Notes: generated by a model not told the origin, from the letters alone. A stretch of 64,000 nucleotides of DNA from an uncultured Bacilli bacterium (GCA_934098515.1 CAKOOK010000001.1:8486-72485); one strand, 5' to 3'; counted from the stretch's first letter, positions 30,452-33,190 are shown. A program made the numbers and translations.

Positions 30452-30470
30452 TGGCCGCCACTGGCGACCA
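30452..30470. repeat. hairpin F of the DUF1016-associated hairpin family
   Basis: TGGCCGCC-act-GGCGACCA (7 of 8 pairs), then TTTT on the plus strand. Confidence 0.7.
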
Positions 30471-30540
30471 TTTTATATTTGAAAAGGCTTCTTAAAATCA
30501 TTTAGATATTTTGCTTTAATCATTAATATTTAACTCAATT

Positions 30541-30559
30541 TTGACCACATTGTGGTCAA
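30541..30559. repeat. hairpin E of the DUF1016-associated hairpin family
   Basis: TTGACCAC-att-GTGGTCAA (8 of 8 pairs), then T6. Followed in the gene sense by AATTGAGTTAAATATTAATG, a decayed copy of AATTAAGTTGGAGTCATTATG. Confidence 0.75.
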
Positions 30560-30800
30560 TTTTTTAATCATCAGTTAATTCATTATCTTCTTTTTTACCT
30601 AATTCTTCTAGAAAATTAGAAATATCTTCTTATATCAGTTTTTGTAATATCCTTTCTGATATTATTTCATTGTTCAGCTTATTTTTCTTTTAGAAAGATT
30701 TTTTTGATAACTTGATTAATATAATAATCTATTTCATTAGCATTATTTAAAGAAAAAAGAAATCTGTAATGTTACATTGTTAACCTTTCCGACAACGTCG
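30560..30800 (-). pseudogene. internally deleted DUF1016 remnant (copy D)
   Basis: Stretches align by eye with copy A, for example cagtttttgtaatatcctttctgatattat and acttgattaatataataatctatttcat. Encodes EDISNFLEELG, equivalent to DDITSFMKELG. No intact frame. Confidence 0.6.
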
Positions 30801-30803
30801 GGA
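30787..30803. repeat. hairpin D of the DUF1016-associated hairpin family
   Basis: TTCCGAC-aac-GTCGGGA (5 Watson-Crick pairs, one GU, one AU), then C and T5. Confidence 0.65.
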
Positions 30804-30818
30804 CTTTTTAATATTAAT

Positions 30819-30837
30819 TGTGCCCCCACTGTGCACA
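30819..30837. repeat. hairpin C (decayed) of the DUF1016-associated hairpin family
   Basis: TGTGC-ccccactgt-GCACA, then C and T5. Same position as hairpins A and B relative to the coding remnant. Confidence 0.55.
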
Positions 30838-31006
30838 CTTTTTCATCACTAAATATATTGTAGAATTGTTTCATCCTAAATAATGTTCTTCTATTATATT
30901 TTTTTGCCTACTTCTATAACTAATTTTTCAAAATATCTATCTATAATATTATCACCATATTTGCTACCTGCTTCATTAAGCAGTTTTCCTATTTCAAAGA
31001 ATGATA
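30819..31006 (-). pseudogene. frameshifted DUF1016 N-terminal fragment (copy C, codons ~35-95)
   Basis: Near-copy of 31617-31810 of copy B, with an extra A in an A-run and in-frame stops. Starts directly after the stop of copy B. Confidence 0.7.
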
Positions 31007-31897
31007 TCATACTAATTCATATTTTCTAACAGCAATTCTTTCGTCAGAACAATACTCTATAACAAACTTGTTTTCTCTTTTACATATCAATATTCCCATT
31101 GTATTATTAGCTGACAATTCCTTTATATTTTTATCTATATAATTCATATACTTTTGAACTTGTGATATATATTCTGCTTTAAATTCAGTAACTTTTAGTT
31201 CTACTACTACATATGCATTATATTTTATATTAAATAATAGTAAATCAATATAATGATTTCTGTCACCTATTTTAATTTTGTACTCACTACCTATAAAACT
31301 AAAGTTATTACCTAACTCGTGCATAAATGATTCAATATCTTCTAATATTAAATTATGTAATGCTTTTTCAGTAACTATAATTATATTATTTTTATTTCTG
31401 ATACATATTGGATTAGGTATTAAATCTTTAACGTTTAATGATTTGCTATTTATTATTTTGTTTCTTGTTTCCGTAGGCAATCTTTCATACTCGTTATTTT
31501 TAATTTTTTCTTGTAGTTGTCTTTGTGATAAATTGTTATCCTTTGCAATTTTAATATAATATTTAATTTCGTTATAATCGTCTAATGAAATTAAAAGTAA
31601 ATAATGACTCCAACTTAATTGTGACAACAGTGTTGACACTTTTTCATTACTAAAGACATTATAGAATCTTTTCATTCTAAATAGTGTTCTTCTATTATAT
31701 TTTTTGCCTACTTCTATAACTAATTTTTCAGAATATCTATCAATAATATTATCACCATACTTACCGCCAGCTTCATTAAGTAATTTTCCTATTTCAAAGT
31801 ATGTAATAACTTTATGCTTTTCTTTTGAATAATCTTTTACCTTTAAATATATTTCATTATCTATTAACTTATTCTTTATCTCATCATAATAATTCAT
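31007..31897 (-). CDS. DUF1016/YhcG-like PD-(D/E)XK nuclease, copy B
   Basis: SQLSWSHY N-domain motif, FMHELGNNFSFIG, and the nuclease core YIDLLLFNIKYNAYVVVELKVTEF. Confidence 0.75.
   Translation of the reverse strand: MNYYDEIKNKLIDNEIYLKVKDYSKEKHKVITYFEIGKLLNEAGGKYGDNIIDRYSEKLVIEVGKKYNRRTLFRMKRFYNVFSNEKVSTLLSQLSWSHYLLLISLDDYNEIKYYIKIAKDNNLSQRQLQEKIKNNEYERLPTETRNKIINSKSLNVKDLIPNPICIRNKNNIIIVTEKALHNLILEDIESFMHELGNNFSFIGSEYKIKIGDRNHYIDLLLFNIKYNAYVVVELKVTEFKAEYISQVQKYMNYIDKNIKELSANNTMGILICKRENKFVIEYCSDERIAVRKYELV
31621..31639. repeat. hairpin B inside DUF1016 copy B
   Basis: GTGACAAC-agt-GTTGACAC (7 of 8 pairs), then T5 on the plus strand. Encodes VSTLLSQ on the minus strand. Confidence 0.75.
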
Positions 31898-31933
31898 ATT
31901 TCACTCCTTTCTACGGACTATATGTCTCAATTC

Positions 31934-32278
31934 TTAATTTACTTTTTTAGTCTTGAACATGATACTACCATCTTGAACTGTTCTATAAATTCTTGAACCA
32001 TCTAATTTATTTAACACTTCTTTATTTGGATGACCATACCTATTATTTTTGCTAACACTTATAATTGAATACATTGGATTAATATCATTTATAAAATCTT
32101 TACCTATTCCAGCATCCCCCATAAACATAAATTTACATACATCAAGTTTAGTATAAATAACATTACTATTATCATTCTCATTATCGTACTCTTTTGTTTG
32201 TAGGAAATGCAGTTTACTATTATCAATATTTAATTTTTTAATACATGAGTAATACTTAATATTTTTCTTATCTAACAT
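31934..32278 (-). pseudogene. duplicated comEC 3' end with internal deletion
   Basis: LDKKNIKYYSCIKKLNIDNSKLHFLQTKEYDNENDNSNVIYTKLD... is nearly identical to the ComEC C-terminus. It lacks about 30 codons, including the VGHHGS metallo-beta-lactamase segment. Confidence 0.85.
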
Positions 32279-32305
32279 CCATACTTATATTTCTGCTGCA
32301 TTATA

Positions 32306-33190
32306 TCAGAGTAATTTATATTCCCTAGCAATTATCCTATTATCTGAACAATATTTAATTACATATTCATTATCTTGCTTACAAATAATAATTCCTACTG
32401 TATCATTTTCTTCAATAGTTTTTATATTTTTATCAATATAATTCATATAATTTTGTATTTGTCCTGTATGATTCGAATTTAATTTAGTTACCTTTAATTC
32501 AATAACAACATAACATTTAAACCTAATATTATATAAAAGAAGGTCTATATAATTATAACTATTCCCTACTTTAATTTTAAATTCATTATCTATAAAACTA
32601 AATCCACTTCCTAATTCTTTCATAAACGAAGTAATATCATCTAATATTAGTTTTTGTAATAACTTTTCTGATATATTATCATAATTATAACTATTCTTAA
32701 TTAATATAGGATTTTTAACAAAATCCACAACGTTACTTTCTTCCTTATTTATTAATTTTAATCTGGTTTCTTTATCTAATCTTTTATATTCTCTTGATTT
32801 TACAATTGTTCTTAAGGTTCTAATATCAATATTATTAATACAAACTTGATTAATGTAATAATTAATTTCATCTATATTCTTTATGGGTAACAATTCAACA
32901 TAATGACTCCAACTTAATTGGTGCGACAATGTCGCACCTTTTTCAATTAACCAATAAAACTGTCTAATGCGTTTTAATAAAGTTGTATTATATTTTTTAT
33001 GAACCTCAGACTTAAGCCGTTCAGAATGTTGTTTAATAATATTTTCTCCGTAATGTTTGCCATCTTCCGAAATCATTTTTCCAACATTGTAATAAGTCTT
33101 TAGGTCGCTTTTGTTAATTGAATAATTCTTTACCTTCTTGTTTATCTCATTATTTAAAAGTTCATTTTTTATCTCATCATAATAATTCAT
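32306..33190 (-). CDS. DUF1016/YhcG-like PD-(D/E)XK nuclease, copy A
   Basis: HQLSWSHY, FMKELGSGFSFID, YIDLLLYNIRFKCYVVIELKVTKL. Start taken at MNYYDEIK with RBS GAAAGGAG; the ORF track extends to 33223. Confidence 0.75.
   Translation of the reverse strand: MNYYDEIKNELLNNEINKKVKNYSINKSDLKTYYNVGKMISEDGKHYGENIIKQHSERLKSEVHKKYNTTLLKRIRQFYWLIEKGATLSHQLSWSHYVELLPIKNIDEINYYINQVCINNIDIRTLRTIVKSREYKRLDKETRLKLINKEESNVVDFVKNPILIKNSYNYDNISEKLLQKLILDDITSFMKELGSGFSFIDNEFKIKVGNSYNYIDLLLYNIRFKCYVVIELKVTKLNSNHTGQIQNYMNYIDKNIKTIEENDTVGIIICKQDNEYVIKYCSDNRIIAREYKLL
32920..32938. repeat. hairpin A inside DUF1016 copy A
   Basis: GGTGCGAC-aat-GTCGCACC (8 of 8 pairs), then T5 on the plus strand. Encodes GATLSHQ on the minus strand. 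Confidence 0.8.

Follow-up and report, generated by a model that had tools for sequence, protein, structure and literature searches.

A structure-conserved, sequence-variable hairpin within DUF1016/YhcG nuclease genes: a candidate DNA-level site for the encoded enzyme

DUF1016/YhcG proteins form a very large nuclease family without known function, found frequently on plasmids, in prophages, at restriction-modification loci and on conjugative elements; in the literature they figure only as predicted nucleases, borne on mobile elements and enriched beside restriction-modification loci (PMC9881135, PMC4316617). Two intact members, copies A and B, lie in a stretch of 64,000 nucleotides (nt) from an uncultured Bacilli bacterium (GCA_934098515.1, CAKOOK010000001.1:8486-72485), which we call the window and whose G+C content is 29%. 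The locus is chromosomal, between comEC and rpsO, and all of its genes are on the minus strand, in the order comEC, copy A, a 3' fragment of comEC, copy B, ~550 nt of remnants, rpsO and pnp (Table 1). Both copies score above the Pfam cut-offs for DUF1016_N (PF17761) and YhcG_C (PF06250), with 79.5 and 121.1 bits for copy A and 93.0 and 115.4 for copy B, and in both the catalytic E-D-E/D-K columns are intact. Within each gene a short G+C-rich hairpin is embedded in the seven codons that precede the motif LSWSHY, and further copies of it lie among the remnants. We show here that this hairpin is an ancient cis-acting nucleic-acid element within the DUF1016/YhcG gene family, selected for pairing and stability, whose arms are kept complementary and G+C-rich while their sequence, and therefore the encoded peptide, is free to drift. 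Three of its traits are seldom seen in a bacterial gene: at one fixed position it takes precedence over the protein sequence, it has been retained across phyla, and it outlives genes as orphans. The hairpin gives a concrete handle on the biology of the family, and it offers clean natural material for the question whether conserved structures within genes work at the level of DNA or of RNA; it also provides a nucleotide signature by which decayed DUF1016 cassettes can be spotted, and explains odd terminator-like hairpins and arrays that annotation pipelines would otherwise misread.

Table 1. Genes, gene remnants and hairpins of the DUF1016/YhcG locus, in window coordinates
Feature	Position	Strand	Plus-strand sequence	Gene-sense sequence	Remarks
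comEC	33204-35207	-			conserved neighbour upstream of the DUF1016 array
DUF1016/YhcG copy A	32306-33190	-			294 amino acids from ATG; DUF1016_N + YhcG_C PD-(D/E)XK nuclease
comEC 3' fragment, duplicated	31934-32278	-			345 nt (duplicated segment to 32287); 91% identity to 33478-33667; 80-bp internal deletion; precedes copy B
DUF1016/YhcG copy B	31007-31897	-			296 amino acids; 52% identity to copy A
B-like N-terminal remnant	30814-31003	-			87% identity to 31615-31803; hairpin C at its end
A-like remnants	30598-30737	-			30709-30737, post-hairpin segment; 30598-30670, nuclease-domain segment
Hairpin A	32920-32938		GGTGCGAC-aat-GTCGCACC	GGTGCGAC att GTCGCACC	8/8 pairs; inside copy A
Hairpin B	31621-31639		GTGACAAC-agt-GTTGACAC	GTGTCAAC act GTTGTCAC	7/8 pairs; inside copy B
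Hairpin C	30819-30837				decayed, 5 Watson-Crick pairs; ends N-terminal gene fragment; folding not significant
Hairpin D	30787-30803		TTCCGAC-aac-GTCGGGA		7 pairs including one G.T; ~15 nt from C
Hairpin E	30541-30559		TTGACCAC-att-GTGGTCAA	AAAAAA-TTGACCAC aat GTGGTCAA-AATTGAGTT	8/8 pairs; orphan module
Hairpin F	30452-30470		TGGCCGCC-act-GGCGACCA	TGGTCGCC agt GGCGGCCA	orphan module

An earlier note on this DNA, made from the sequence alone, had listed six hairpins (A to F) in the locus. Hairpins A, B, E and F are present as it gave them, D is a seven-pair version and C has decayed. In both intact genes the hairpin does encode the peptides that the note had read from it, GATLSHQ in copy A and VSTLLSQ in copy B, directly before LSWSHY, and three stem pairs are swapped compensatorily between A and B, with one further pair broken. 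Hairpin A, flanked by AATT at 32916-32919 and by an A-run at 32939-32943, folds at -14.1 kcal/mol (z -4.5), and E, downstream of which the tryptophan codon has been destroyed, at -10.1 kcal/mol (z -3.2). Hairpin F retains seven Watson-Crick pairs and one G.U in the gene sense between flanks decayed past recognition, and folds at -13.4 kcal/mol in the gene sense and -9.6 kcal/mol on the plus strand. Folding is modest in D (-6.4/-8.0 kcal/mol), which is followed in the gene sense by a short A-like fragment, and weak in B (-6.2 kcal/mol, z -0.9) because of a central T.T mismatch. Just three perfect hairpins with an 8-base-pair (bp) stem and a 3-nt loop occur in the whole window, and A and E are two of them. 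If up to one mismatch is allowed and three or more G/C per arm are required, nine hairpins are counted window-wide against ~9.2 expected by chance; four of the nine fall within this 2.5-kb stretch and share the flanks aatt...ttttt. When the window's stems were sought elsewhere in the 64 kb as possible targets, no copies were found beyond one chance 8-mer.

The case for selection on pairing rests on the homologues. We compared 105 full-length DUF1016 genes from 80 genome loci of related gut Bacilli (L001-L080), eight distant plasmid homologues at 22-33% identity (from Clostridium, Hymenobacter, Nostoc, Segatella, Legionella, Citrobacter, Vescimonas and Rhodococcus) and a further 160 metagenome and viral loci, giving a total of 253 unique (non-redundant) DUF1016/YhcG regions from Bacillota, Bacteroidota, Cyanobacteriota, Pseudomonadota and Actinomycetota. 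The seven codons before LSWSHY form an 8-bp stem of seven or eight Watson-Crick pairs with a 3-nt loop in 212 of the 253 (84%), with eight pairs in 125 regions, seven in 87 and six in another 13, and the 19-nt core takes 193 distinct sequences. Among the close relatives the hairpin register averages 7.3 of 8 Watson-Crick pairs, and 90% of the 105 genes have at least seven, built from 58 different stems; all other positions of the same genes average 2.5 pairs (standard deviation 0.84), the next best reaching 5.06. Among the distant plasmid homologues, which represent five phyla, all eight carry the hairpin at these codons. Covariation was counted formally over 150 unique sequences, with 500 column shuffles and slid registers as controls: 84.6% of cells are paired, against 55.7% after shuffling and 32-37% in slid registers, and the covariation score is 0.619, against 0.154 and 0.06-0.13 respectively. 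Not one of the 500 shuffles reaches the observed value of either measure, and 11 of the 12 tested pairs show compensatory changes, on both sides. Pairing potential, far from being absent in homologues, is thus near-universal among them, and the proposal of the earlier note that selection acts at the nucleic-acid level, with residues covarying so as to keep the pairing, is borne out by the difference between 7.3 and 2.5 pairs, by the shuffle tests and by the choice of glutamine codons described below.

The consequences for the protein are conspicuous. Variants of the seven-residue block among 120 homologues include GATLSHQ, GAPLEHQ, GVAMPHQ, VQTLSAQ, SHTLCDE and CPTLSDK; codon 3 is matched to codon 5 as T with S or C, P with E or G, and A with P, and codons 2 and 6 combine G-first with C-first and the reverse. 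As residue covariation this is chemically senseless, and it tracks base complementarity exactly. The yhcG gene of E. coli K-12 has AAGATTTGGCAGAC-gct-GTCTGCCAAATCTT, perfect 14-bp arms about a 3-nt loop that fold at -20 kcal/mol, in the site AAGATTTGGCAGACGCTGTCTGCCAAATCTT (NC_000913.3 3368205-3368235; L249 6206-6236), where the codons read WQTLSAK and the LSWSHY motif is altered; no annotated feature in the K-12 record overlaps this inverted repeat. RNAalifold detected no other conserved structure within 200 nt of the hairpin on either strand, and a larger conserved RNA structure around it is therefore rejected. Among the regions outside the counts given above, some carry a perfect 18-bp palindrome in a shifted register, and in three viral or metagenome loci (L160, L121, L245) the site is a perfect 18-bp palindrome without a spacer, where a nearby 1-nt change restores the reading frame (e.g. 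VQQLLHK). A viral subfamily in which TNWASH replaces LSWSHY (L199-L213) has neither hairpin nor AATT flanks, with the catalytic residues intact. Single-protein scans of viral contigs for further lineages yielded almost nothing new.

Across the family the module takes the general form AATT-N8-N3-N8'-AATT, and contiguous arms extend up to 15-17 bp. Counted outward from the loop, pairs 1-7 are Watson-Crick in 88-98% (pairs 2-7 in 94-98%) and pair 8 in 79%; pairs 9-10 are T-A in most clades and A.A in that of the window, and pairs 11-12 are A-T in 81-91%. The window's clade has replaced the upstream (A)ATT with GAAAAA, encoding Glu/Gln-Lys, which gives rise to the T-run on the plus strand. Stems have 68% G+C against 22.5% in the host genes. 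An AlphaFold model, taken from a second, usable run after one on a shallow alignment proved poor for the nuclease domain, predicts the helical N-terminal domain well and places the encoded block in a coil between helices 69-83 and 94-100 (predicted local distance difference test, pLDDT, ~90), so that the protein can tolerate whatever peptide the hairpin dictates.

Nor is the element confined to intact genes. Locus scans revealed non-coding modules, each consisting of an A-run, a hairpin and AATT, that adjoin DUF1016 genes in the genes' own orientation, often in tandem. Twelve such copies were collected: three at L058, three at L012, one each at L036, L031 and L025, and D, E and F of the window. 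Those of L058 (3869-3963) are spaced at a period of 38 nt in the interval from comEC to the start codon of DUF1016, and all carry the inner GCAGCC of that gene's stem; those of L012 (3867-3971) have different stems, perfect or nearly so, and the first two are 16 nt apart; the single module of L036 (3963-3981) ends 19 nt before the ATG, beside the ribosome-binding site. AATT follows the stem in 10-12 of the 12 copies. AATT-flanked orphans occur in other clades as well (L157, L158, L216), and by hand tally at least 7/8 pairs survive in 19 of the 21 gene fragments spanning the site, approximately the rate of intact genes. The element does not depend on the peptide, and it can be retained in non-coding DNA. 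The spacing of 15-19 nt between modules in other species marks the C-D pair of the window as a recurring architecture, not a chance junction, and a second junction recurs at the 3' end of arrays, where the window (30541-30670) and L046 (5400-5600) share a nuclease-domain fragment, ending near ...ELG..(F)..NE, fused to an A-run, hairpin and QLSW fragment. The earlier note had placed rearrangement junctions at the hairpins. For the remnants this has some support, in that closely adjacent modules (L012, L058) and the nuclease-fragment junction (L046) recur; it does not extend to intact genes, among which no recombination breakpoint was seen at the hairpin and mosaic pairs switch identity near residue 140, away from it. 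A strain comparison of the locus was uninformative, the three contigs compared, out of 23 read, being 99.9% identical, and orthologous remnants were not comparable in the next species (P0005), where the locus has a different neighbourhood.

Persistence in pseudogenes and non-coding remnants would equally be predicted of a functionless, self-perpetuating palindrome, in which template switching during replication copies one arm from the other and mutations are reverted, or become 'compensatory', without selection. The mechanism is an established one, since template switching can create and maintain hairpins (PMC8794818) and quasi-palindrome hotspots are documented (PMC7202029), and it would also predict strict Watson-Crick pairing with few G.T, as seen; the peptide, besides, is a tolerant loop. 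It does not explain, however, why one fixed codon block is retained over five phyla in ~85-90% of genes, why stems are so rich in G+C within genes so poor in it, why non-coding copies conserve their AATT or A-run flanks, or why nothing comparable is found at other positions of the same genes, and we give it only a small chance of being correct.

Whether the hairpin acts as DNA or as RNA, and on which strand, can be addressed through its codon choice and its mismatches. Glutamine at codon 2 is written CAA opposite T 38 times and CAG opposite C 34 times, with G.T once and A.C five times; 72 of 78 cases therefore follow the partner base, and the rule holds even in G+C-rich hosts and in those that prefer CAG, such as Rhodococcus. 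Mismatches at pairs 1-7 of the unique cores, read on the sense strand, comprise 27 A.C/C.A, nine G.T/T.G and 20 others, and removal of shared descent by hand leaves ~23 A.C against ~7 G.T (naive binomial p ~0.005, uncorrected for phylogeny). Were the hairpin to act in mRNA, G.U should be tolerated and the bias reversed; a DNA-level structure, or a fold of the antisense strand, agrees better with the data. Conserved hairpins in transcribed bacterial sequence are usually RNA elements, and a sense-strand mRNA hairpin could serve as a ribosome pause after the N-terminal domain, as an RNase entry or stability element, or as an RNA decoy or antitoxin binding its own nuclease. Consistent with such a role, the gene-sense folds of A, F and E. 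coli yhcG are strong; orphans share the genes' orientation in DUF1016 5' leaders, as at L036, and others, after the last gene, would be co-transcribed; and some of the PD-(D/E)XK relatives returned by fold search (Can2, Card1, cap-snatching endonucleases) cut RNA. Against this, G.U is nearly neutral in RNA yet is avoided here (38 CAA to one CAG opposite T), A.C predominates among sense-strand mismatches, hairpins persist in dead fragments and non-coding DNA, and there is neither a conserved start codon or ribosome-binding site downstream nor a slippery site at a workable distance. On balance we regard an mRNA element as unlikely. Two specific translational roles were rejected. One is a programmed -1 frameshift at GAAAAAG followed by the hairpin, where the spacer would be just 0-1 nt, re-pairing of the P-site codon is impossible and the -1 frame lacks conservation. 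The other is an internal translation start after the hairpin, for which GGAG...ATG is found only in copy A, out of frame and not conserved.

Mismatch bias towards antisense folding also speaks for the reading of the earlier note that each hairpin is an intrinsic terminator on the plus strand. Such a terminator or insulator, with its hairpin followed by T4-T6, would stop antisense transcription through the DUF1016 array and its neighbours and would be the hairpin's main present role in the AT-rich clade. Part of this is supported: A, D and E fit the plus-strand terminator pattern, of which the region has six sites against 0.4 expected, and the A-run is kept in genes and orphans alike. The residue before its lysine varies (E, Q, S, L, G, I), and yet its codon has A in third position in 96 of 105 genes (TCA in 10/10, ATA in 3/3). 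In the 12 orphan copies every base from -4 to -1 is A (100%) and -5 is A in 75%, the share further upstream being 8-58%. At L062, whose gene has lost its own hairpin (3/8 pairs), three intergenic CCCAAAAA-stem-TTTTTGGG modules (3929, 4903, 5037) flank the gene, and these, as A5-stem-T5 with perfect 16-bp stems, are perfect bidirectional terminators. Other evidence speaks against it. The T-run is found in the window's AT-rich clade only, (A)ATT elsewhere, E. coli yhcG included, pairing with AATT to leave no T-run on either strand, so that termination is not the ancestral or conserved role and leaves conservation across the family unexplained. Positions -3 and -4 can also be accounted for by their pairing with the TT of AATT; on the plus strand the hairpin of copy B does not fold and F makes a weak terminator; no plus-strand open reading frame of at least 120 amino acids lies upstream in the region, and plus-strand promoters are not enriched there (40 promoter-like sites against 31.4 +/- 5.7). 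As the main role we consider termination distinctly improbable; at best it is a clade-specific add-on, a secondary role made plausible by the conserved A-run.

A further alternative is that the palindrome is read as double-stranded DNA, as an operator for a sequence-specific dimer of the protein's variable N-terminal domain, each paralogue co-evolving with its own site. The N-terminal domain (residues 1-140) is indeed far more divergent than the nuclease domain in some paralogue pairs (35-45% against 85-94% identity), and residues 93-140 have a weak profile match to the DNA-binding region of Spo0J/ParB (E 0.039). Orphans resemble the stem of the neighbouring gene, GCAGCC being common to all four sites of L058 and those of L012 and L157 being one pair off, and wobble would not be expected in a duplex site. 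Even loop positions 1 and 3 are complementary to a degree (odds ratio 3.3, p 0.03); the weakness of this complementarity nevertheless shows the centre to be a true loop and so speaks against a duplex reading across it. Natural operators, moreover, are rarely perfect palindromes, whereas here pairs 2-7 keep their complementarity over 193 cores; the high G+C of the stems is left unexplained, and wherever close relatives differ by one swapped pair, the specificity of the protein would have had to change in step. We think this explanation very unlikely.

The reading that we tentatively favour, as plausible rather than probable, is that the hairpin is a candidate DNA-level site, folded as a hairpin or cruciform, on which the structure-specific nuclease of the same gene would act, in feedback or to initiate recombination. 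The DNA would form a hairpin on one strand, or be extruded from the duplex as a cruciform, geometrically a four-way junction, and the gene's PD-(D/E)XK product would dock on this structure or cut it, either throttling the expression of its own gene or starting local recombination. The nuclease domain is in line with this: fold search matched it, weakly (whole-chain template modelling score ~0.2), to NucS/EndoMS, the Holliday-junction resolvase Hje, Cas4-like and other PD-(D/E)XK proteins, and an earlier profile analysis placed YhcG nearest YraN and archaeal resolvases (PMC1189080). With the site lodged in the gene, the two could not be separated, by the same logic as the pT181 origin in repC. 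Free-standing copies of the module persist beside the genes and, in the AT-rich clade of the window, the A-run on the 5' flank would add an intrinsic-terminator reading for antisense transcripts.

The double-strand origin of pT181-family plasmids (the IR-II cruciform in repC) and the Rep boxes of pSK41 are the closest precedent, as they lie inside rep coding regions, encode a peptide that is dispensable or a linker, and are extruded as a cruciform by Rep (PMC5703833). As there, a cis-acting DNA site within a gene would serve a DNA-cutting or DNA-binding protein, and members of the family differ in the sequence of the site; unlike them, DUF1016 genes are chromosomal or carried by plasmids or prophages without being replicon cores, the site is held in one register across phyla, and the action of the protein on it is putative. 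Put in general terms, the proposal becomes that DUF1016/YhcG genes from Actinomycetota to E. coli carry their own putative structured substrate, bound or cut by a Holliday-junction-resolvase-like product, in a self-referential module; this we hold to be somewhat unlikely. Were it true, the module may act in feedback control or in triggering recombination and turnover of defence-gene arrays, with orphan modules as extra sites, and it would represent a new kind of pairing between cis-element and enzyme as well as the first testable function for E. coli yhcG.

Several observations weigh against a nuclease site of this kind. In the window's clade the arms are contiguous over no more than 8 bp, a short length for a cruciform to extrude spontaneously. 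Strand bias is not expected of a cruciform, and the excess of A.C over G.T points instead to a single (antisense) strand, or to uncorrected mutational or phylogenetic bias. Catalytic residues are intact with or without a hairpin, so there is no signal of co-loss; the boundaries of mosaic genes lie away from the hairpin; copy B combines an intact gene with a weak hairpin; and the gene of L062, having none, shows that the hairpin is not indispensable.

As far as the literature and Rfam show, the element has not been described before: no account of a palindrome or hairpin in these genes was found in the literature and, in Rfam, only RNase P reaches its gathering score window-wide, with nothing up to E = 1 in 30300-33300. 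We also compared it with known classes. With intrinsic terminators it has in common, in the window's clade, a G+C-rich stem of 7-8 bp, a short loop and T4-T6 on the plus strand, and it differs in being intragenic and antisense to its gene, with no upstream plus-strand gene and with the T-run missing in most of the family. Integron attC sites and repetitive extragenic palindromic (REP) elements likewise combine a conserved short outer sequence with a variable inner stem, place structure over sequence and occur as tandem or orphan copies. The DUF1016 stems, however, are perfect, in modules of 19-31 nt flanked by AATT or an A-run, and lack the R/L core sites (GTTRRRY), extrahelical bases, 57-141-bp length and IntI of attC; in contrast to REP elements, which are extragenic and present in many copies per genome, they have a head of AAAA or AATT instead of GTAG, no REP-associated tyrosine transposase (RAYT) gene, and copies that are mainly intragenic and found at DUF1016 loci only (in the 64 kb, at the one locus). 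Traits of a pT181-type intragenic origin are seen, namely a site inside the gene and a loop-like, freely varying peptide; the protein, though, is a PD-(D/E)XK nuclease, not the Rep_trans/HUH initiator of a rolling-circle replicon, and the locus is chromosomal. Early promoters of phage N4 are small DNA hairpins extruded by supercoiling, with a 5-7-bp stem and a 3-nt loop, that act as one-strand DNA. They resemble the DUF1016 hairpin in their short stem and 3-nt loop; unlike it, they serve a phage RNA polymerase as promoter elements, and the DUF1016 locus has neither such a polymerase nor such a promoter context. Readings as matS, parS, dif or DNA-uptake sequences were rejected, as those sites are fixed in sequence whereas 193 different cores are found here. 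One stem, GTGAC-gct-GTCAC of the Citrobacter plasmid pC50_001 (L086), coincidentally fits the matS consensus; in the same plasmid (1-1339) a site-specific integrase gene and the DUF1016 gene overlap at the end of the former, and in L253 (7030-7923) a DUF1016 gene lies ~1.1 kb upstream of a tyrosine recombinase.

The locus itself contains a duplication. Comparison of the window with itself reveals a tandem [comEC-3' + DUF1016] unit, in which 31001-32287 matches 32300-33667 with an 80-bp deletion, at 71% identity over 31001-32104 (the DUF1016 gene and ~200 bp of the comEC 3' end) and 91% over 32097-32287. A DUF1016 gene follows comEC in 45 of the 80 related loci, where arrays reach 7-8 paralogues (L024, L073) with many pseudogenes and extra comEC 3' fragments are frequent between copies. 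These fragments start near residue 478 or 618, and either point as an element boundary is not established, because both are conserved motifs (HxHxDH, NxYGHP) where similarity searches would begin anyway. At L011 the downstream comEC fragment is nearer to the ComEC of the window (80%) than is the C-terminus of the resident gene itself (55%), which hints at exchange of the [comEC-3' + DUF1016] module between species. Terminator-like hairpins on the gene strand occur at 30243-30264 (-), upstream of rpsO and after the DUF1016 remnants, and at 29821-29844 (-), between rpsO and pnp; a 24-nt AT-rich inverted repeat, 92% self-complementary, lies in the region upstream of rpsO at 30297-30320, and a full-length RNase P RNA of bacterial class B is encoded at 23407-23746 (-; 291.8 bits).

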